Positions 49,042 through 58,244 of a stretch of 64,000 nucleotides of DNA are shown here, one piece after another. The stretch is from a virus (taxonomy: Duplodnaviria; Caudoviricetes): the IMG/VR virus record IMGVR_UViG_2687453145_000002, positions 32,001-96,000 of that record. One strand, 5' to 3'. Position 1 is the stretch's first letter. The number at the start of each line of letters is the position of its first letter. Position numbers and translations under genes: made by a program. Under the pieces are notes generated by a model that saw nothing but the letters and a program-made list of their open reading frames with translations, was not told where the DNA came from and did not search any database.

Positions 49042-49165
49042 CACCTCATCCGTTGCCACCTGGGAGCTCTATGAGCTCAAGAAGCGGGAATTGCAAGCAA
49101 TGGGGTTATCCCAGCGTGAGTACGAATTGGCTGTGCGCCGATTGGCTGATGAATTGGAGGTGTGA
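49034..49165 (+). CDS. Small hypothetical protein
   Basis: GGAGGT RBS; 43 aa before O. Confidence 0.6.
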   Translation: MVNTSSVATWELYELKKRELQAMGLSQREYELAVRRLADELEV

Positions 49166-49166
49166 G

Positions 49167-50000
49167 ATGGCGGCGCTTTTGAAGTTTCCAGATAGACGCC
49201 CACAGAGTGCCCCACAGGAGGTTCGTGTGGCAGACCTTGATGATGGCTATACCCGCATTGCCAATGAGCTCTACGAGGCGCTGATTGGCGCTGATTTGAC
49301 CAAGCACCAGTTCAAGGTCGTACTGGCGGTGATCCGCAAGACCTATGGCTTTAACCAGACCCATGATCGCATCACCAATGGGCAGATAGCCGAGATGACC
49401 GGTTTGCCGGAGACCCGAGTTTGCACCGCCAAAAACCAATTATTGGAGATGGGAATACTGGTCAACAAAGGGCGAAAAATAGGACCCAACAAGGTACTTT
49501 CTGAGTGGGACTTTGACGCTCCCCGAAACAGGGAAAAGCTACCCGAAACAGGGTATAAAAATTTCCCCGAAACAGGGAATCGAGTTTCCCCGAAACAGGG
49601 ACACACAAAAGACACTATTCAAAAGACAGTAAAGACAACTACTGATGGGGCATCAGCTTGCGCTGAACCCCCAGCAGCAACCCCCGAAAAGCGACCAGTG
49701 AAAAATACACCATACCAGGCGATCCTGGATGCCTATCACGACATCCTGCCGGAGATGCCAGCCATCCGTGAGCTGACCGATTCTCGCAAAACCAAAATCA
49801 GGAACTTCTGGACCAAGTTCAAGTTCGACGAGACCCGCTGGCGCGCCTACTTGGATTTCATCGCCAAGAACTGCCGCTGGATGTGCGAGAGCCGCCCGCG
49901 CCGCGATGGCGAGTCGGCCTGGAAGCCGAAGAACTTGGATTTTTTGGTGACCGAGAGGTGTTATCTGGGCGTGCGGGAGGGGCGGTTCAATGACGAGTGA
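49167..50000 (+). CDS. Lambda O-like replication initiator
   Basis: VADLDDGYTRIANEL...RKTYGF; internal iterons. Confidence 0.9.
   Translation: MAALLKFPDRRPQSAPQEVRVADLDDGYTRIANELYEALIGADLTKHQFKVVLAVIRKTYGFNQTHDRITNGQIAEMTGLPETRVCTAKNQLLEMGILVNKGRKIGPNKVLSEWDFDAPRNREKLPETGYKNFPETGNRVSPKQGHTKDTIQKTVKTTTDGASACAEPPAATPEKRPVKNTPYQAILDAYHDILPEMPAIRELTDSRKTKIRNFWTKFKFDETRWRAYLDFIAKNCRWMCESRPRRDGESAWKPKNLDFLVTERCYLGVREGRFNDE
49521..49600. repeat. Replication origin iterons, 4x CCCGAAACAGGG
   Basis: Four copies inside O followed by A-rich tract. Confidence 0.85.
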
Positions 50001-51402
50001 TGCAATGGGGTTTGTGCCCCCTCACAACTTCGAGGCAGAGCAGTCTGTGCTGGGCGGGCTGATGCTGCGGGCTGACTCGTTCCACGACTTGGGCCTGTCT
50101 GAACGCGATTTTTACAGTCGCCCGCACCAGATCATTTTCGGGGCGATCTCCCAACTGATCGCCGCCAAGCAGCCGGTTGACATCATGACAGTGCAGCACC
50201 GTATCGAGCAGGACGGCGAGCTCGATGTTGCCGGCGGGTTTGCCTACCTAGTCGAGATCGCCAAGAACACCCCAAGCGCGGCGAACATCGTGACCTATGG
50301 GGGGATGGTGCGTAGCGCTGCAGAGCGGCGCTTCGCTGTTGCCAAGCTGCATGACTGTATCGCGGCGATGATGGAGCCTGGATTCAGCAACACCGATGAG
50401 CGGTTCGCTGCGATGGGGTCGCTGTTGTCTGAGGTCGATGCCAAGCGCTCTGGGGGTGTGACCGGGATTGCGGTACACGCCAGCGAAATCGTGCGGGACT
50501 GGTGTGATGAGCTGGATCGCCGGGCAAGCCGCCGCCCAGGGGAGATGACCGGTTATGCCACGGGGATCGCGTCCTTGGATGAGTTGCTCTACCCAGGTGG
50601 GATCAGCCCTACGGCGCTGGTGTGTATCGGCGCTCGACCGAAGATGGGCAAGACCACGCTGATGGCGAGTCTGTGTAACCACACGTCGCTGGTCAAGAAG
50701 CTCCCTGTGGTTGGTTTTTCGCTGGAGATGACACGGGGTGAGCTGTTCGAGGTCATGGTATCGCAAGCGTCCGGTGTCTCCGGCAAGCATCTGAAATCAA
50801 TGTCTGACCAGTGCAAGATGGACAAGGCCTACGCTGTTGCCGCAGAGCTTGGTAACTCCAAACTCCATATCGCAGATCTGCCTGGGCTGACTGTGCACCA
50901 GGTGGTGCGTGAGAGTCGCCGGCTGAAGCGACAGTTCGGTCAGCTCGGGCTGATCGCTGTTGACTACCTGACGCTGATGACTGCCGACAAGGCTGAGCGT
51001 AACGATCTGGCTTACGGCGCGATAACCAAGGCGCTCAAGATGCTAGCCAAGGAGATGGGTTGCCCGGTGATCCTGCTGACTCAGCTCAATCGAGGGCTGG
51101 AGCAGCGTGCAGACAAACGCCCGGTTCCCAGCGACAGCCGTGACACCGGCCAGATCGAGCAGGATTGCGATGTGTGGATCGGCTGTTATCGCGATGAGGT
51201 CTATAACGAGGCTTCCCCGATGGCAGGAGTCATGGAGTTGCTGGTCAGGCTCAACCGAGGCGGTAAGACGGGAACCGCTTACTGCCAGTTCCATGATGGG
51301 GTGATCTCAAATATCGACCAGCAAGAGGTTGCGCGCATGGCACATGCTGCAGAAGTGGAACGCAGCAAATCCAAGCCAGCGAAAGGGGGGTGGGATGGCT
51401 GA
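49990..51402 (+). CDS. dnaB: DnaB-like replicative helicase
   Basis: PPHN.EAEQSVLG, GARPKMGKT, DYL, QLNR, IEQD. Confidence 0.95.
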   Translation: MTSDAMGFVPPHNFEAEQSVLGGLMLRADSFHDLGLSERDFYSRPHQIIFGAISQLIAAKQPVDIMTVQHRIEQDGELDVAGGFAYLVEIAKNTPSAANIVTYGGMVRSAAERRFAVAKLHDCIAAMMEPGFSNTDERFAAMGSLLSEVDAKRSGGVTGIAVHASEIVRDWCDELDRRASRRPGEMTGYATGIASLDELLYPGGISPTALVCIGARPKMGKTTLMASLCNHTSLVKKLPVVGFSLEMTRGELFEVMVSQASGVSGKHLKSMSDQCKMDKAYAVAAELGNSKLHIADLPGLTVHQVVRESRRLKRQFGQLGLIAVDYLTLMTADKAERNDLAYGAITKALKMLAKEMGCPVILLTQLNRGLEQRADKRPVPSDSRDTGQIEQDCDVWIGCYRDEVYNEASPMAGVMELLVRLNRGGKTGTAYCQFHDGVISNIDQQEVARMAHAAEVERSKSKPAKGGWDG

Positions 51403-51706
51403 TTTTTTCAATCCTGACGTGAGTGCCGCGGTCGTGGCCGCGAAATTCTGCCGGGTGGTGATCTATCCCGCCGTGCGGGGCTGGTGTGGGGAGCGGATGC
51501 AGCTCGAGGTGGCCGACGAGATCGATGCGTTGGGTCACACCGACCAGCAGCGTGGCGCAGGGCATTGGCTGGCGCAAAGCACGACGCCGGAGCGAGTGGC
51601 GGAGGAGGCTGCACGGCTGAGAGCCGCGCCAGTGCTGGTGTTGCGGTGTGATGCTTCGTTTGGGGCTGTGGATAACTTCGAAGGGGAGGGCCTTGCCAAC
51701 CAGTGA
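51395..51706 (+). CDS. Hypothetical protein
   Basis: Overlaps helicase stop. Confidence 0.55.
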   Translation: MADFFNPDVSAAVVAAKFCRVVIYPAVRGWCGERMQLEVADEIDALGHTDQQRGAGHWLAQSTTPERVAEEAARLRAAPVLVLRCDASFGAVDNFEGEGLANQ

Positions 51707-52076: not shown

Positions 52077-52252
52077 GACTGACCCACGCTATCGCGGCTG
52101 TGCTGTTGGCAGCTACAGGCCAGCCCGCTCGCCTCAATCCGAACGACTTCATCCCCGGCTATGGATTCTGCATCCCCAACCCGCGCAATGACCGGGCTGC
52201 ACAGCGTCAGCGTGCAGCCGCCAAGCGCCGCAACAAGTCCAAGCGGGGGTGA
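52073..52252 (+). CDS. Small basic protein (59 aa)
   Basis: ATGA overlap; RAAAKRRNK tail. Confidence 0.55.
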   Translation: MRLTHAIAAVLLAATGQPARLNPNDFIPGYGFCIPNPRNDRAAQRQRAAAKRRNKSKRG

Positions 52253-52254
52253 GC

Positions 52255-52695
52255 ATGAGCTACCCCAAGTATTTTCTGCGCAGCCCCGATATCCGGGCCC
52301 GCGCCAGCCAGTTGGTCGCCAGCCTGCCGGTTGATCAGGACAAGCCGCTGGTTATCGAAATCAAGGAGCTGACCCGCAGCCTGGCTCAGAACGCTCTGTT
52401 CTGGGCCGTCATGACCGACATCGCCGAGCAGGTCAACTGGCACGGCCGCAAGCTCTCCAAGGAGGACTGGAAGCACGTTCTCTCCGCCGCCCTGTACCAG
52501 CAGGACGTGGTGCCGAACATCGACGGCAATGGCTTCGTGGTGCTGGGTAAGTCCACTTCCAAGATGACCGTGCGCGAGATGCGCGATCTCATTGAGCTGG
52601 CCCAATCCTTCGGCGCCCAGCAGGGCGTGAAGTTCGGGGATGAATCCCGCCGAGGTTTCGACTGGGTGGCGGCCTACGGGAGGGCTGCAGCATGA
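52255..52695 (+). CDS. ninB: NinB/Orf recombination protein
   Basis: RSLAQNALFWAVMTDIA.QV.WHG, STSKMTV.EM..LIE. Confidence 0.9.
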   Translation: MSYPKYFLRSPDIRARASQLVASLPVDQDKPLVIEIKELTRSLAQNALFWAVMTDIAEQVNWHGRKLSKEDWKHVLSAALYQQDVVPNIDGNGFVVLGKSTSKMTVREMRDLIELAQSFGAQQGVKFGDESRRGFDWVAAYGRAAA

Positions 52696-53009: not shown

Positions 53010-53428
53010 TCCATCTATCCGCCCTCGATGCGGCCCGGTTGCTGGGTAGCAGCTCGAAGGTCAGGAGCGCAGCCAACCAGGTGCGCAAGGCGCAGCAGGT
53101 CACCTCCCTGCACGACAAGGTGCTGACCAAGCTGGTCGGCCTTCCTGACCCCGCCACCGAGCTGTTGTTTCACCCCAAGCGCAAATGGCGCTTCGACTAC
53201 GCCTGGCCCACCCGCATGATCGCCATTGAGGTCCACGGCGGGATCCACTCCGGCGGCCGGCACACCCGGGGGAGGGGGTTCGTAGAGGACCGGGCCAAGA
53301 TGAACGAAGCCACCTTGCTCGGGTGGACCGTGCTGGAAGTTACCCCAGAACACATCAAATCCGGCCAGTTGCGCGCCTGGCTGCTCGCCGCCTTCAATCA
53401 GGACCCAGACCAGAGGACCAAACTATGA
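53006..53428 (+). CDS. PD-(D/E)XK (Vsr/DUF559-like) endonuclease
   Basis: FHPKRKWRFDYAWP..IAIEV.GG...GW.VL. Confidence 0.8.
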   Translation: MIHLSALDAARLLGSSSKVRSAANQVRKAQQVTSLHDKVLTKLVGLPDPATELLFHPKRKWRFDYAWPTRMIAIEVHGGIHSGGRHTRGRGFVEDRAKMNEATLLGWTVLEVTPEHIKSGQLRAWLLAAFNQDPDQRTKL

Positions 53429-54126
53429 CCCACGCTATCGAAATGGCTCTGCGCCTTTTCTCGCCGAAAGGGGCGCTCCATGAGCCCGCCGCCGGCAGGC
53501 AGTTCAATGCTCTGGGCCGGGACGAGTTTATCGGCGCCCTGCAGGTTGCCGCAAAGAGCAACCCGCAAGGGCTCCAGTTCCTCATGGCCGACCACCTGGG
53601 GGACGAGCAGGCACTGGCGTCATTGCTGGCACACTTCAGCACCACGCTGGGCAGCGAAGAGGCCGGTGGTATGGCGCTCGCTATTCTGCTGCGCCGGCCT
53701 CTGCCTGAGCAGATGGATCAGCTGGTACTGTCTCACCCGCACTATGACAAGGAGCGCCGCCGGGCCGCCGTGGTGATGGAGAAGGCCAAGCGAGCTCACC
53801 GCGGTGGCAATGACCACGAGTACCAGCGCCTTCTGGCCGAGCGTAACGAGATCCTGCAGTTGGCACGCGACCACTGTGTCGCCGAGATGCTGCGGTCTGG
53901 TCGTTGTCCTCACTGCAAGGGAACCGGGATCCGCCCTCGCAAGGGTGACGACTGCCCGAAGTGCCACGGCACCGGGCGAGTGGTGCCCCATGCCGATATG
54001 GTCGCGCGCCGCTTCGGGCAGGAGATGCGGCAGGCCGTAGAGCGTGCTGTTGATGAGGTGATCCACCAAGCGTCAGACTTGTCCAAACTCATGGACCGGC
54101 AGGTGAGGGAGATGCGAGCGGCTTAG
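53425..54126 (+). CDS. Q-like late antiterminator with zinc finger
   Basis: Last nin-region gene; CPHCKGTG...CPKCHGTG. Confidence 0.7.
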   Translation: MTHAIEMALRLFSPKGALHEPAAGRQFNALGRDEFIGALQVAAKSNPQGLQFLMADHLGDEQALASLLAHFSTTLGSEEAGGMALAILLRRPLPEQMDQLVLSHPHYDKERRRAAVVMEKAKRAHRGGNDHEYQRLLAERNEILQLARDHCVAEMLRSGRCPHCKGTGIRPRKGDDCPKCHGTGRVVPHADMVARRFGQEMRQAVERAVDEVIHQASDLSKLMDRQVREMRAA

Positions 54127-54352
54127 GAAGGAATATCACACCCCATGCTATGGGATGCTTTGATGAAGACAAAATTCAAATCTAATGGGGTGTGGTATAA
54201 CTGTATGAATATTTTGTATTTTTATGTTTTTCCTTGTTCCTGGGTAGCACTGGCAGTGCCATAATAGGGTTGACGGCTAGGTCATCATTGGCCATCATTC
54301 CGGCTACACCATTGACTTACGAATCGTGAGTCCAAGGTGTTAAAAAAGGGCC

Positions 54353-54586
54353 CTAAGGCCCTTGGATGTTGATGATTACCTCCTTAATTTGCTCTATAGC
54401 ATCTAAAACAAGCCTGCCAAGTTTGAACAGTGCGCTGGCTAGTTTGAGGAGTGATTCAAGTGATTGGGCTATTGCGAGTAGCCTATCAGTCAGTTTCGAA
54501 GACCCTGCAGTTACTAGCTGTGGGGTCTTCGCATTCTCGGCCGAAGCCGCACTTCGTCGCCCTATCGAGCGTCTTGATTTCGCCAT
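54353..54586 (-). CDS. 77-aa basic/amphipathic protein behind nrdA-like promoter
   Basis: AAGGAG RBS; basic N-terminus, Leu-rich amphipathic C-half. Confidence 0.6.
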   Translation of the reverse strand: MAKSRRSIGRRSAASAENAKTPQLVTAGSSKLTDRLLAIAQSLESLLKLASALFKLGRLVLDAIEQIKEVIINIQGP

Positions 54587-54695
54587 GACGTTTCTCCTTG
54601 CACGGCGGTGGATAAATTTTCTTGTATAGCATCATCCAATCTCTCCTTTCTGATACCTATTCAACATCGCTGAGCTTAGGTTTTTTGAGCCGCAA

Positions 54696-54799
54696 GCCCA
54701 ATATATAGTGTTGATTTGAATTCGAACTACAAGATAGTGAGGTCGTCGTGGCATTGCAATCTGTGGATAACGCATAGGCTGTGGATAAATTGTGGATTC
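54696..54799 (-). promoter_or_regulatory. nrdA-type promoter: DnaA boxes, TTGCAA-17-TATCTT, two NrdR-like boxes
   Basis: TTATCCACA (minus) at 54762 and 54780; GCCCAATATATAGTGT at 54696 and CTACAAGATAGTGAGG at 54727, 31 bp apart. Confidence 0.75.
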
Positions 54800-55079
54800 T
54801 CGGACTTGTGTTAGTGGCCGCTCACAGTGAGTGGGTTTTCATCCGTCCGATCCGGCAAATGCAAGTCCGATGATCGAAGATGGAAAATTTAGATAACTTT
54901 TTTTACTTGCGAAAACGTGGTGTTTTTCATGGTTGAGTTTATCTGTATGCCCTGTTACGCAAGGGATACAGGGAAAATGAGTCCACTGTCAGCTAGTCTG
55001 CTTTCTGTGAGCCGAGTAGTATCTCGGAGTTCAGGCCAGATTCGAGACCTTGACATTCATTTTTCATTAGGCGGGATGC

Positions 55080-55424
55080 ATGGAAAGCAAGCTGAAACCT
55101 ATCGCCCTACAAGTCGCCGGTTGGGGGCTGCTCCAGGGCGATTTCTTTGACTTTCACGAGGTGGCAGAACGGCTGGGTGTCCCTGCTGAGGTGTCCCGCG
55201 AGGCGGTCATTTATCTCCGGTCACTCCGCTATGTGGAGACGCTGGCGGAGTCGAGAAGCTGCAAGCGTGAGGTGGGCAAGAGAAGCTCAAAGCGAGTGTT
55301 TATCAAGGTCCTGGCCATCCACCCCGAACCGCCTCAAGGTTCACAATCTTTCAAGCTCAATGTCCTGCACTCAAAGTTGGCCCGCCTTTCCAAGGCTATG
55401 CCTTCACCTCGGGGAGCTCGCTGA
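55080..55424 (+). CDS. CaiF/GrlA-family transcriptional regulator
   Basis: [14 protein letters not shown]....VAERLGV.......VIYL...IKVLAI pattern. Confidence 0.6.
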
Positions 55425-56676
55425 TGCAGGTGGTGTAGCGGGGGCTGAGCTGCTCCCGTTTCATCATCCACTCCCGGGTATCCCGGCCCCGGGCCGCGAA
55501 GTAGACCTTTCCCAACCGCCCCTGATTGATCTTGTCGATGACCTGCATCAGTGCCTCACTGCGGGGCGATTGCTGCTTCGCTGCGAACAGGTCGCCCTGC
55601 TGCATGTCGGCTGGGGTAAAGTCGGCCAGCATGACGCCGCCCTTCTGATATCGCTGTTCGTCGCGCCAGATGTGGGGAAGTAGTTGGGGGATCAGGGCCA
55701 GCAGCGCCCGTGTGTCATTGGTGGGCATCGCCAACTTGGTGCTCACCTGGTTGCCGTAGTAGGGTTCGCGGTCGCTGAACGGGCTGGTGCGGATGAACAG
55801 GGTGACGTGGCGGCAGCACATCCCTTCCCCTCTGAGCTTCTCGGCCGCCCGCTCCATGTAGCCGGCCAGCGCCTGGTGCATGGGGCCGATCTGGGTGATG
55901 CGCTCGCCGAAGCTCCGGCTGCAGATGATCTGCTGCTTGGCCTGGGCCTCTTGCTCCAACTCGGCGCAGGGGATCCCTCGCAGCTCCTGCACGGTGCGCT
56001 CCACGACTACGCCATACCGGCGGCGGAGGCTCTTCGGGTCAGCGGCAACCAGGTCGGCCACGGTCTTGATGTCCTGGGCCTCCAGCTTGGCGGTGAGCCG
56101 CCGACCAATGCCCCATATCTCTTCCACCGGAGTGATCGCCATCAGCCGGGCGCGCCGCGCTTCATCCCGCAGATCCACCACGCCCCCGGTGGCCGGCCAC
56201 TTCTTGGCGGCGTAGTTCGCTAATTTCGCGAGCGTCTTGGTGGGGCCGATGCCGACCCCAACGACCAGCCCGGTCCACTGCTGCACCCGTTCGCGAATCT
56301 GGCGGCCATAGGCCACCAGGTCGCCCGCCCAGGACTCGCTCAGTTCGATGAAAGCCTCGTCGATGCTGTAGACCTCCACCGCCGGGGCCATCCCCTCCAG
56401 AATGGTCATCACCCGGTTCGACATGTCGCCATAGAGGGCATAGTTGCTGGAGAACCAGACCCCGCCCATGGCCTCGAAGAACTGGCGGATCTGGAAGTAG
56501 GGCACGCCCATCTTGATGCCGAGCGCCTTGGCCTCTGCAGAACGGGCAACGACGCAGCCGTCGTTGTTGGAGAGCACGACGATGGGCCGCCCCTTCAAAT
56601 CAGGCCGGAACAGCCGCTCGCAGGAGGCGTAGAAGTTGTTCACATCGACCAGAGCCACGGCGCAGCTCTTGTTCAT
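55396..56676 (-). CDS. umuC: DNA polymerase V catalytic subunit
   Basis: [40 protein letters not shown]. Confidence 0.95.
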
Positions 56677-57095
56677 GGCGCGGGCATCTTGTGGATGACG
56701 AAGGTAACCACACCGAAGATCTCCAAGTGCTGCCCGTCACTGAAGTGGATGGGGCGATAGGCCGGGTTCCCTGGTAAGAGGCAGACTGAGGGGCTGAGCT
56801 GGAGCTGCTTCACAGTGAACTCGCCATCTACGGCCGCAACAACCACGCTGCCATGCACTGGCTTGCTGCTGCGGTCTACGACCAGCATGTCACCATCGTG
56901 GATCCCGTGCTCTACCATGCTGTCCCCGGCAGCCCGAACGTAATAAGTCGCGGCCGGGTGCGCTATGCATAGCTGGTTCAGGTCGATGGTCTGTTCCACA
57001 TAGTCCTGGGCGGGGGACGGGAAGCCACAGGCGGCAGGAGAGAGGAACAACGGGATTTCCAACGCTGGGGCGTCGAGGTCGGGAACTGCAAACAT
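56673..57095 (-). CDS. umuD: DNA polymerase V subunit UmuD
   Basis: [10 protein letters not shown] cleavage site, GDSM, FTVK. Confidence 0.95.
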
Positions 57096-57113: not shown

Positions 57114-57129
57114 CTGTATATAAACACAG
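57114..57129. promoter_or_regulatory. LexA box of umuDC
   Basis: CTGTATATAAACACAG. Confidence 0.9.
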
Positions 57130-57218
57130 TATAACGATACCCATGGCGAAGATCACCGTGGAGCGATTGGCTCCGGATTCGGGTAATATCGGCAGGTGCC
57201 CTATGCGTGGAGTCGCCA

Positions 57219-57416
57219 ATGTCATTCAATCTGTGCTCCCTGCCGAAAGACGAGCAGGAGAAGGTCGAGGTAGAGAAGGCCGCCGCCTATGCGGTATGGA
57301 AGGAAAGGAACCCCGAGATCAAGATCCCAGCCGAGAGCGAGGCCGGGAACTACAAGGGGGAGATGCAGGCCTACTTCCTGCAGCGGGTAGAGCAGTATCG
57401 GAAAAACATACGATGA
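57219..57416 (+). CDS. DNA polymerase III theta homologue (HolE/Hot-like)
   Basis: NL..L...EQEKVEVEKAAA..VWKER...YFLQRV..YR resembles theta. Confidence 0.75.
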   Translation: MSFNLCSLPKDEQEKVEVEKAAAYAVWKERNPEIKIPAESEAGNYKGEMQAYFLQRVEQYRKNIR

Positions 57417-57545: not shown

Positions 57546-58244
57546 ATGGGGTTCTTAGGTTTTATGAATTCACAAGTGGGCTTATTGGTTATTGATAAGC
57601 TATTAATTGGAGCGATACTGTTACTTGTTGGATATCAAGTCAGTAAAATGCTTGAGAGGTACAAAAGCGGACAAGCATTTTCTGATGAATTTCAAAAGCA
57701 AAAGGTTGTGAGGTTAACTGCTGTTTGTGATTCGTTGGCAGAGTTTGAGATCATGGTACTTCATTCCCCATACAGGTTTAGTGACATACTAGTAAGGGAG
57801 ATGAGGAAGCATGGCATCGAAAACGTTCCTGAGTTAGGTCAGAGTATTTCATTCGATGAGGCTAGAGATATAATTATAATGGCATTTCAAAAATTGGGAA
57901 AAGAGGCCGTAGATGCTGTTGTAAAGAAAGATTTTATGCCATATGTCGATAGCTTAAATAAAATTGTTGAGTCATCATCAGTATTGATGGGGAAGAATCG
58001 ATTTTGGATAGATGAGCAAATTTATGTTATGTTGCGGAGTTATCATGGCAAACTATCTTCGTACAATAAGGATATATATTGCCTGAAAGATGATGCAAAA
58101 GAACGTTATGAACGGGCGCGTGATGAGTTAAATTCTAACAGGGATGAAATAAAAAATGCAATCAACGCTGCAATGGATGGTGGGGTTAAAATGAAAGCTT
58201 TAGCCCGTGAGACCCTAGGTTCGAAAAGGGGCTGGAAGTGGTAG
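57546..58244 (+). CDS. AT-rich moron protein with N-terminal TM segment
   Basis: AGGAG RBS, low GC, helical body. Confidence 0.75.
   Translation: MGFLGFMNSQVGLLVIDKLLIGAILLLVGYQVSKMLERYKSGQAFSDEFQKQKVVRLTAVCDSLAEFEIMVLHSPYRFSDILVREMRKHGIENVPELGQSISFDEARDIIIMAFQKLGKEAVDAVVKKDFMPYVDSLNKIVESSSVLMGKNRFWIDEQIYVMLRSYHGKLSSYNKDIYCLKDDAKERYERARDELNSNRDEIKNAINAAMDGGVKMKALARETLGSKRGWKW

Follow-up and report, generated by a model that had tools for sequence, protein, structure and literature searches.

The prophage locus examined here raises the question of what a promoter of the nrdA type does in a phage genome when no nrd gene follows it. The locus lies on the minus strand of a lambdoid Aeromonas prophage, between a Q-like gene (stop at 54126) and a divergent winged-helix gene, and was studied in a window of 64,000 nucleotides, which is the whole stretch of DNA that was analyzed. 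The locus has a GC content of 42-48%, compared with 60-67% on either side. A preliminary description had proposed that a captured nrdA-type promoter with DnaA and NrdR boxes drives a small protein at this site.

A copy of the Aeromonas nrdA upstream region

The segment 54699-54927 (minus strand) was found to be a 229-bp copy of the DNA located upstream of Aeromonas nrdA, with 83.6-90.4% identity over the full 229 bp at 17 host loci (blastn). Positions 54699-54900 of the window have matches in 43 of the 46 Aeromonas genomes, at 73-91% identity. The nrdA ORF of the host genome G001 begins 17 nt downstream of the fragment match, and in L009 the ORF located 3' of the match has the ATP-cone, RNR_lgN and RNR_lgC domains. 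The alignment to the host nrdA upstream region, suggested in the preliminary description as a check, has thus given 84-90% identity at 17 loci that adjoin nrdA. The fragment is a direct homologue of the nrdA promoter region of the host genus, which goes beyond the E. coli-like layout noticed at first; the observation of a captured promoter is real, and the core of its interpretation holds.

The junctions of the fragment are sharp. At the 3' side the junction falls after position 13 of an NrdR-type box (54711-54696), and the captured copy ends 26 nt past the predicted transcription start, the host 5' leader being absent. In contrast to the chromosomal nrdAB promoter, the phage copy resides in a prophage, is fused to a phage leader ORF and has no nrdA after it. 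As had been stated, no nrd gene follows: only a 49-codon leader ORF and a 77-aa ORF are found downstream, so that the fragment is a displaced copy and not an nrd promoter in its original place. No gene for the RNR large subunit (PF02867) was found in the whole 116-kb record, and the fragment drives no nrdA/nrdB operon. The fragment gave no match at E <= 0.01 in 5,426 E. coli genomes (blastn). Similarly, positions 54100-55100 gave no match in 50,697 GenBank phage records (blastn), and the unit is therefore absent from the sequenced isolate phages of that set.

Promoter elements and the DnaA and NrdR boxes

The core promoter, TTGCAA-17-TATCTT (54759-54731, minus strand), is composed of a -35 element at 54759-54754, a 17-nt spacer and a -10 element at 54736-54731; both hexamers are the same as in the hosts, and the predicted start is near 54724. 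The promoter was not flagged by a simple sigma-70 scan, because it fits just 8 of the 12 consensus positions. Two exact DnaA boxes are located upstream on the same strand. The distal box, TTATCCACA at 54788-54780, is present in six of the seven aligned phage copies and in all 17 host copies. The proximal box, again TTATCCACA, at 54770-54762 and 2 nt upstream of the -35 element, is invariant in phage and host copies, with the restriction that it was part of the search pattern, a 17-mer spanning this box and the -35 element, by which five of the aligned phage copies were found. The 64 kb contain only three exact DnaA boxes, the third being at 51667-51675; when up to one mismatch was allowed, 18 were counted in the window versus 7.2 +/- 2.5 in shuffled sequences. 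The sequence previously called a degenerate box, GAATCCACA, has two mismatches to the DnaA box. A near DnaA box had also been pointed out at 54607. This sequence, TTATCCACC at 54615-54607 (minus strand), differs from the box at one position; as the window contains 15 such sites, this one included, it carries no significance by itself. We rejected it as a regulatory site, since it is better read as conserved codons of the leader ORF (Y-P-P-P) and as part of a stem, and it is also present in relatives that lack the nrdA fragment.

Candidate NrdR-type 16-mers were scored on the six key positions C4 A6 A8 T9 T11 G13, following PMC13584703, in which the NrdR regulon site is described as two 16-bp boxes of this pattern with a linker of 15-16 bp. 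The box over the -10 element, CCTCACTATCTTGTAG (54742-54727, minus strand), fits five of the six key positions and has a C at position 6; it is the counterpart of box 0 of E. coli nrdAB. The second box, ACACTATATATTGGGC (54711-54696, minus strand), fits all six and is the counterpart of E. coli box 1. The two boxes start 31 bp apart, with a 15-bp linker, and are the sole pair in the window in which both boxes fit at least five key positions at a spacing of 31-32. The NrdR-like 16-mers reported in the preliminary description are thus present as a pair, but the box over the -10 element matches the weakly binding E. coli box 0 (TCACACTATCTTGCAG). According to PMC12176259 and PMC13584703, box 0 binds NrdR poorly, and the KD is ~6.9 uM for box 0 plus box 1 compared with ~0.1 uM for box 1 plus box 2, a difference ascribed there to a C that box 0 has at position 6, as does the phage box. 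Given that the box over the -10 element is the equivalent of this weak box, and that the captured segment ends inside the downstream box, NrdR control of the phage copy is uncertain.

The likeness to the gammaproteobacterial nrdAB promoter comprises the two DnaA boxes just before the -35 element, a -10 element lying within CACTATCTTG (likewise in the E. coli probe shown in PMC12176259), and an NrdR-type box ~31 bp downstream. The likeness to E. coli is partial: phage and Aeromonas host copies alike lack a further downstream box (box 2), which forms the true E. coli NrdR site. Aeromonas itself encodes NrdR, and a canonical NrdR pair is found at its second RNR locus.

A leader ORF, a 77-aa ORF and a terminator

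The first cistron downstream of the promoter is a 49-codon leader ORF (54635-54486, minus strand) that had been missed in the preliminary description. It is preceded by an AGGAG Shine-Dalgarno sequence (54647-54643), contains the YPPP motif, and overlaps the 77-aa ORF in another frame. The leader ORF was kept in every relative examined, and in all six distinct relatives examined it was found at offset -49 with a Shine-Dalgarno sequence. For its codons 2-16, dN/dS was below 1 in 9 of 10 pairs; over the overlap with the 77-aa ORF, 7 of 10 pairs had a value above 1 (L022, which has indels, was left out of this comparison). A stem formed by CCGCC and GGCG encloses the start codon of the 77-aa ORF; as this start is paired with leader codons, its translation is probably coupled to that of the leader.

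The 77-aa ORF (54586-54353, minus strand) has its own Shine-Dalgarno sequence, AAGGAG (54599-54594), and encodes a protein with a basic, disordered N-terminus followed by one long heptad-repeat helix (residues 29-75, pLDDT 72 in the AF2 model). Hydrophobic residues occupy 11 of the 14 a/d positions of the helix, a heptad pattern on the basis of which the helix may self-associate. With a best 19-residue hydropathy of 1.46 the protein is amphipathic and not membrane-spanning, and the product is a small basic one with a helix of the coiled-coil type. There are 11 homologues (54-99% identity), and the family has 10 representative proteins among 1.84 billion. In the C-terminal half of the ORF dN/dS is ~0.5-1. 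No family match was found in Pfam, PHROGs or PADLOC, and no fold match indicating a function; feature matches in the Atlas (0.82-0.86) are under the level at which they would count as more than leads. Our best guess is that the product is an oligomeric effector, expressed in the lysogen, whose target is the envelope or nucleic acid.

The unit is closed by an intrinsic terminator at 54363-54342 (minus strand), with a 7-bp GC-rich stem, a 4-nt loop that contains the stop codon, and a T-tract (MFE fold). All six consensus pairs are kept in all nine sequences, with compensatory changes at two of the pairs. Contigs from metatranscriptome or transcriptome libraries, which are strandless and carry no 5'-end information, cover 54615-54821 (X15), 54922-55126 (X16) and 54325-54488 (X19, depth 2); no reads of the raw-read run X21 mapped to the locus. 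These contigs are uninformative as to expression; against the predicted start at 54724, X15 extends 97 nt upstream of it. The claim that the promoter drives the small protein is upheld as regards orientation, the conserved ORF family, the ribosome-binding sites and the covarying terminator, whereas the small protein is not the first cistron and the start site is a predicted one. The explanation that we consider the most probable, with reasonable though not high confidence, is that the captured nrdA promoter transcribes the phage leader ORF, the 77-aa ORF and the terminator as a unit in an accessory-gene slot.

Genomic setting and the opposite strand

The neighbourhood agrees with the preliminary description in that umuDC and theta were confirmed as neighbours. 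The adjacent GrlA-like regulator corresponds to a 114-aa winged-helix protein (55080-55424, plus strand; AF2 pLDDT 79), whose top PDB fold match is indeed GrlA (4kt5_C, E 9.8e-3, TM 0.67 on the target). Nevertheless, it matched no Pfam family at E <= 10, and the CaiF/GrlA family PF07180 was detected in 2 of 28 relatives at E <= 0.1, with precomputed matches in 38 of 63 homologues, so that we retain the name only as a weak resemblance. PADLOC assigned no family to the 77-aa, 114-aa, 232-aa, Q-like or theta-like proteins.

On the plus strand, a candidate promoter TTGACG-17-CATCAT (54270-54298), which fits 9 of 12 positions in the scan, is located downstream of the Q-like gene and faces the small gene. 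Relatives retain it in part, along with a GCAC-N6-GTGC + CATAAT element upstream of it, and judging from its sequence and position it may be the late promoter of the phage. The small gene is antisense to the presumed late leader. Inside its coding sequence there is a plus-strand hairpin (54498-54530) whose arms are invariant in five of five sequences, and which is terminator-like on the late strand; its counterpart in L002 was flagged by the scan as terminator-like on the antisense strand, with a T-tail that is weaker in the window.

These features bear on the possibility that the captured promoter serves mainly for antisense or convergent transcription into the presumed late promoter and leader, damping or timing the late (lysis, structural) genes according to the replication state of the host, the small ORF being secondary. 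The small gene lies wholly between the Q-like stop and the plus-strand hairpin, and the protein motif conserved best, AEKTKTPQL, is encoded by the complement of the hairpin and its T-tract and has invariant wobble positions. A second small-protein family found in the same slot (aligned without L030, the main ORF of which is broken) likewise shows a hairpin and T-run on the opposite strand, within its 5' third. It should be mentioned that homology of the two small-protein families was considered and rejected: hhalign gave a probability of 7.9%, over the first 19-20 residues only, and the opposite-strand hairpin with its T-tract accounts better for the EKT motif common to both. A regulated promoter running antisense to the Q and late-leader region, and a terminator-bounded leader downstream of Q, are familiar from lambda, in which the CII-dependent anti-Q promoter PaQ is directed into the Q region and PR'-tR' constitutes the late leader. 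In contrast to PaQ, the promoter of the present unit stems from the host and has boxes for DnaA and NrdR in place of CII dependence, and the unit stops short of the Q-like gene and encodes proteins; its late promoter and terminator are predicted. Moreover, a pure antisense role would not require that the ORFs, their ribosome-binding sites and the leader ORF stay open, as they do in all lineages but one, and the T-tail of the plus-strand hairpin is weak in the window. We consider a mainly antisense function unlikely and continue to favour the reading of the unit as a promoter-driven pair of cistrons.

Recurrence in related prophages

Nine distinct phage copies of the fragment were found in one slot with shared junctions (window/L003, L043, L020, L056, L030, L034, L053/L070, L071 and L073). 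Near-identical sequences were counted once each, namely L003 and L046 with the window, L070 with the L053 type, and L004 and L005 with L002, to which they are identical over the part used. The mean pairwise identity is 76% among the seven aligned phage copies versus 89% among the hosts. In the seven-copy alignment, which omits L071 and L073, 30 of the 38 box columns are invariant, whereas outside the boxes the figure is 68 of 178 (p = 4.7e-6 by Fisher test, once the 15 columns of the search pattern had been removed). If the copies are refreshed from the host by gene conversion, this footprint need not mean selection in the phage. The boxes are conserved in the host sequence as well. In both of the two genomes that hold both copies, the phage copy is nearest to the nrdA promoter of its own host among 19 host loci. 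The tree, with 14 of 19 inner branches left open, and the AU test (p = 0.19) neither establish nor reject a single origin.

Relatives that lack the nrdA fragment carry a 48-70-nt copy of another host region, the ptsP-lgt intergenic region upstream of lgt-thyA, at the identical spot and in the same orientation, and L073 carries both types of segment in tandem. The lgt-type segment has no DnaA or NrdR boxes. The second small-protein family of this slot (76-80 aa) is unrelated to the 77-aa family and has a clear membrane helix.

The fragment could also be a neutral remnant of recombination between prophage and chromosome, functionless in the phage. It is short, its 3' end cuts an NrdR-type box, homology between prophage and chromosome invites exchange, and the phage branches are long, at 0.16-0.46 changes per site versus at most 0.09 in the hosts. 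Such a remnant would nevertheless not be expected as nine diverged copies with a common position, orientation and junctions and with promoter and box columns preferentially invariant, nor would the alternative segment in relatives again be a conserved host intergenic element at the same spot and in the same orientation. We therefore regard a functionless remnant as improbable.

Comparison with known accessory modules

The overlap of the two ORFs recalls the mok/hok type I toxin-antitoxin systems, in which an upstream ORF overlaps a small toxin ORF. The resemblance comprises an upstream ORF with a strong ribosome-binding site that overlaps the start of the small ORF, and a start codon paired in a stem. 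On this ground the unit might be a stress-triggered toxin or abortive-infection module, its toxic small protein being released when NrdR/DnaA control gives way under dNTP depletion or invasion by another phage; the membrane helix of the sister family in the slot and the broken main ORF of L030 would suit such a role, as would the reaction of the E. coli nrdA promoter to replication stress noted in PMC11853086. The 77-aa product, however, has no match to the Hok family or to any other family of Pfam, PHROGs or PADLOC, and is an amphipathic protein and not a short membrane peptide. A Sok-like RNA, or any other antitoxin or antisense RNA family, was not found in 53900-55300 with Rfam (evalue mode), where the only match was a sub-threshold naRNA4 at 53914-54020 (22.5 bits versus a gathering score of 59.5), judged to be due to chance. 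Only the overlapping leader ORF is thus mok-like, while a Hok-family membrane toxin and a cis antisense RNA were not found. The toxin, defence or lysis-lysogeny role envisaged in the preliminary description is unsupported by these searches, and for the toxin module we see little prospect. That the boxes act as decoys, with phage replication multiplying the DnaA boxes and the NrdR site so as to sequester the regulators of the host and free its dNTP synthesis from repression, is hardly credible: no part of the fragment is better kept than the boxes, and their copies would multiply, but a decoy needs neither an intact -35/-10 pair nor a fixed orientation and position before a conserved translated unit, and the lgt-type replacement in relatives is devoid of such boxes.

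A close parallel is found in the phage morons, prophage units in which a gene has an independent promoter and terminator (PMC3594210). Like these, the unit is self-contained, has its own predicted promoter and terminator, and is lower in GC than its surroundings. Its place is between the modules for late regulation and lysis, and it runs opposite to the phage genes on its flanks. All the hallmarks of a moron (own promoter, own terminator, atypical composition, location between phage modules) were therefore found, the activity of the promoter being a predicted one. The unit differs from morons in that its promoter can be traced to a specific host regulatory region, and in that one slot holds alternative host segments, of the nrdA type, of the ptsP-lgt intergenic type, or both.

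Proposed mechanism

In the reading that we favour, the 229-bp fragment would act as the promoter of the unit in lysogens, and the unit would consequently follow the nrdA programme of the host. This programme would include DnaA-ATP-dependent control through the two DnaA boxes, possibly repression by NrdR (ATP/dATP) through the box pair, and induction upon replication stalling; according to PMC11853086, the E. coli nrdA promoter reacts to replication stress. The prophage thus probably borrows the replication-linked gene control of its host by means of the captured promoter.

A broader scheme, which we put forward as speculative and rather unlikely, is that the slot between the Q-like and winged-helix genes is a docking site for host promoters that belong to operons for DNA precursors (nrdAB and, from upstream of lgt-thyA, the ptsP-lgt region), with recombination keeping the copies matched to the chromosome and with DnaA-ATP and NrdR-dATP gating both a small effector and a late-leader antisense transcript. 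Were it true, the prophage would sense replication stress through the docking slot, with an input into lysis timing or abortive defence.

Significance

Morons carry their own promoters, the origins of which are rarely traceable. The unit described here is a moron with a promoter traceable to the host, and no report of NrdR or nrdA-promoter elements in prophage accessory genes was found in the open-access literature. The source of the promoter can be read directly, as a 229-bp piece of the nrdA control region of the host; at least nine diverged prophages have kept it, and the boxes for the binding factors are preserved. The nrdA circuit of E. coli follows the initiation of replication and the supply of dNTPs. 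The 5' leader being absent from the phage copy, nature has set up an experiment here that can tell which parts of the nrdA promoter suffice for DnaA/NrdR control. The locus provides a concrete, testable case in which a phage has copied cis-regulatory DNA and so wires a gene of its own into a regulatory circuit of the host.

Genomic setting of the small unit

The window belongs to an IMG/VR provirus record of 116 kb, and the gene order around the small unit is lambdoid. A replication protein and a DnaB-type helicase (49053-51402) are followed by NinB (52249-52695), a RecA-dependent nuclease-like protein and a Q-like protein of 267 aa (53323-54126, plus strand; phrog_17382) that has a DnaJ-type zinc finger. 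A low-GC accessory region lies 3' of the Q-like gene, before umuC (55396-56676, minus strand) and umuD (56673-57095, minus strand), which are followed by a theta-subunit homologue (57207-57416), a low-GC ORF of 232 aa (57546-58244, plus strand) and a LydA-type holin (58302). The presumed antiterminator differs from classical Q; its PHROG is one of unknown function, and its CXXCXGXG zinc-finger match is below the Pfam cut-off. The 232-aa ORF (GC 35-39% vs ~62% in its surroundings) is another moron; it had no match in PHROG or PADLOC, and in Pfam only a sub-threshold PCI-domain match. A consensus LexA (SOS) box, CTGT-N8-ACAG, is located at 57114-57129, and umuD of the prophage starts ~19 nt downstream of it; this pattern has three matches in the window vs ~1 expected. 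The sole CaiF_GrlA (PF07180) match of the provirus record (19.8 bits, below cut-off) is upstream of the window, at G000:C1:25949-26236 (L029); it contains one in-frame TAA and is distinct from the ORF adjoining the small unit.

Relatives of the window genes were found in Aeromonas, and the host is therefore an Aeromonas. The stretch or part of it was found in 20 sequencing runs from 15 studies (14 with half or more of the sampled words), so it is no assembly artefact. One of the RNA-library contigs, which carry neither strand nor 5' end information, reaches upstream of the predicted transcription start.

Homology to the host nrdA promoter

The proposal of the preliminary description, that an nrdA-type promoter had been captured, was borne out by host homology. 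The upstream 202 nt were matched in 43 of the 46 genomes of the genus with 73-91% identity, nearly always once per genome. In A. popoffii, 17 nt separate the match from the earliest start available to a 784-codon ORF with an RNR barrel domain, and in another host ATP-cone, RNR all-alpha and RNR barrel domains were identified in the ORF 3' of the match. Alignment with the host nrdA upstream region (blastn) gave a homologous block of 229 bp (54699-54927, minus strand) with 83.6-90.4% identity to 17 host loci. Its ends are sharp on both sides; at the 3' side the copy stops past position 13 of the downstream NrdR-type box, at a point 26 nt beyond the predicted start. Neither the host leader (~110 nt) nor the nrdA coding sequence is present in the phage copy when aligned with the hosts; moreover, the reported absence of a downstream nrd gene extends to the whole 116-kb provirus record, which has no RNR gene. 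As for the suggested likeness to E. coli nrdAB, blastn of the fragment against E. coli genomes gave no match; the nrdAB probes in PMC12176259, however, share with the window the CACTATCTTG core across the -10 element and have a TATATA-centred box downstream.

DnaA boxes and NrdR-type boxes

The promoter elements listed previously were all found at their places on the minus strand. Two exact TTATCCACA DnaA boxes (54788-54780 and 54770-54762) are followed by the hexamers TTGCAA-17-TATCTT (54759-54731). The promoter was not flagged by a simple sigma-70 scan, because it matches the consensus at only 8 of 12 positions. The exact DnaA box has only three copies in the 64 kb, the third (51667-51675, minus strand) being in the replication module, where it closely follows the DnaB-type helicase gene. 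Two NrdR-type 16-mers with starts 31 nt apart were scored on the six positions (C4 A6 A8 T9 T11 G13) that are highly conserved in NrdR boxes according to the mutational data in PMC13584703; they scored 5/6 and 6/6, the sole pair in the window with these scores and this spacing.

The Aeromonas hosts encode NrdR and have a canonical NrdR box pair at a second RNR locus. In the E. coli binding data of PMC12176259 and PMC13584703, the box over the -10 element ("box 0") was unrecognised by NrdR, boxes 0 and 1 together were bound at ~6.9 uM vs ~0.1 uM for box 1 with the downstream box 2, and a C6 to A change in box 0 made binding ten-fold better. The upstream NrdR-type box of the window has C6, like this box 0, and no further box of at least 5/6 was found within ~160 nt downstream of the pair in the phage or six host loci. 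In the host promoter and in that of the phage alike, control by NrdR is thus possible but uncertain. The two consensus DnaA boxes are the firmer lead. In E. coli, as covered in a review (PMC11853086), transcription of nrdAB is governed by the DnaA-ATP level and is induced under replication stress. The small unit is a candidate for regulation by DnaA and NrdR.

The 77-aa protein and its sister family

The 77-aa ORF (54586-54353, minus strand) has an AAGGAG ribosome-binding site, and at its end the stop codon sits in the loop of a hairpin that is followed by a T-tract (54363-54342). Its family is small; it comprises 11 clusters in a set of 5.8 billion and 10 representatives in 1.84 billion, one of which is a 629-aa repeat protein, and is present in 2 of 103 Aeromonadaceae genomes. 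The dN/dS ratio is ~0.3-0.5 in the N-terminal third and ~0.5-1 in the remainder. AlphaFold predicts a disordered basic tail (residues 1-28 include 6 K/R and 1 D/E) and a single helix at 29-75 (mean pLDDT 72), in which 11 of 14 a/d positions are hydrophobic. Given a 19-residue hydropathy maximum of 1.46, the protein looks amphipathic, not membrane-spanning. Any role for it would be putative, and the earlier idea of a toxin or defence function was unsupported.

At five other loci, the same slot is occupied by a different protein, 76-80 aa long, in which a membrane helix is clear. These sister-family ORFs (L056:806-1033, minus strand; L034:1380-1607; L053:1387-1626; L071; L070) lie behind the same nrdA-type promoter and their own leader ORF, and the protein combines a basic N-terminus with a single membrane helix and a QYY tail that is conserved. 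At one of the five loci, L030, the reading frame breaks off after 24 codons. The two families are apparently unrelated, their profiles being linked over the first 20 residues only (probability 7.9%). They have the terminator hairpin in common, with six pairs, none broken in nine sequences and two with compensatory changes.

The first cistron is a 49-codon leader ORF (54635-54486, minus strand) with an AGGAG ribosome-binding site; its start precedes the main ATG by 49 nt in each of the six distinct relatives of the 77-aa family. The sister family, too, is preceded by leader ORFs that have ribosome-binding sites. Codons 1-16 encode the motif K-[KR]-[LIF]-Y-[PQ]-P-P. Polyproline is missing from L006, L034 and L071 and so is no universal feature. 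The dN/dS ratio is below 1 in 9 of 10 pairs for these 16 codons and above 1 in 7 of 10 pairs where the leader overlaps the main ORF, so that constraint is apparent only in the short upstream stretch. In a consensus fold the proline codons (CCGCC) are paired with AUGGCG of the main start; this stem is invariant and hence has no covariation support. What had been described as a near DnaA box is this proline-codon stretch. We infer that translation of the 77-aa ORF is coupled to that of the leader.

The most conserved ORF stretch, AEKTKTPQL..., has invariant wobble positions, and its DNA (54498-54530) forms an 8+3-bp hairpin inside the 77-aa coding sequence, followed on the plus strand by a T-rich run. 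This hairpin is terminator-like by scan in L002, a related locus; the tail in the window is weaker. Promoter-like elements can be read on the plus strand (54200-54300 region), past the end of the Q-like gene and before the small gene: TTGACG-17-CATCAT (54270-54298) and a GCAC-N6-GTGC plus CATAAT element, both partly conserved. The late leader of lambda has a PR'-tR' arrangement. By analogy, the small gene probably lies antisense within the phage late leader, in which case the nrdA-type promoter would also give convergent antisense transcription there, as predicted from the geometry only.

A second host segment at the same position

Four relatives of the 77-aa gene without the nrdA fragment (L002/L004/L005, L006, L019 and L022) have a common block just upstream of the leader ORF (L002:2857-2904), matched in 34 of 46 Aeromonas genomes with 81-98% identity over ~48 nt. 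In the host (for example L062:1501-1551) it is the intergenic region from a ptsP-type gene to lgt, as identified by Pfam and alignment with seven host loci, and the host thyA starts at the lgt stop. The copied segment is 48-70 nt long across relatives and occupies the same spot as the nrdA fragment; in L019 and L073 it extends to ~22 nt of the ptsP 3' end, and in L073 an nrdA-type fragment lies in tandem ~190 nt upstream of it. The 48-nt block may represent the lgt-thyA promoter; TTGTCC-17-GAAAAT is readable in it, and a promoter scan of the block flagged nothing. Both source operons make DNA precursors, but since both are also essential housekeeping operons, we do not rely on the dNTP theme.

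Recurrence in a phage lineage

A protein search, together with a scan of viral contigs for a 17-mer made up of the proximal DnaA box and the -35, yielded 29 loci, 6 of them with the fragment. Additional copies were found in a metagenome contig (L020) and as second copies in the species-representative genomes G012, G014 and G044, giving nine distinct phage copies (window/L003, L043, L020, L056, L030, L034, L053/L070, L071 and L073). Where flanks are available, the order is constant: winged-helix gene, fragment, leader ORF, small ORF, terminator and Q-like gene. The nrdA-type fragment is thus a standing feature of a phage lineage, no one-off.

Mean identity is 76% among seven aligned phage copies vs 89% among the 17 hosts. 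Invariance across these seven copies extends to 45 of the 53 columns in boxes and hexamers vs 68 of 178 others; with the 15 search-pattern columns removed, the count is 30 of 38 vs 68 of 178 (p = 4.7e-6). The box columns are also the most conserved among the hosts; the footprint therefore suggests, and does not prove, selection in the phage. A tree of the copies has mostly low resolution, with the phage copies on long branches; forcing these together cost 12.4 log-likelihood units and was not rejected (AU test, p = 0.19). In both comparable genomes, G012 (L069/L070) and G014 (L071/L072), a comparison with 19 host loci gave the highest identity of the phage copy (88.9% and 82.2%) with the nrdA promoter of the very host that carries it. 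This similarity points to long association with the host or to conversion by the resident copy, and hints that gene conversion may occur between prophage and chromosome.
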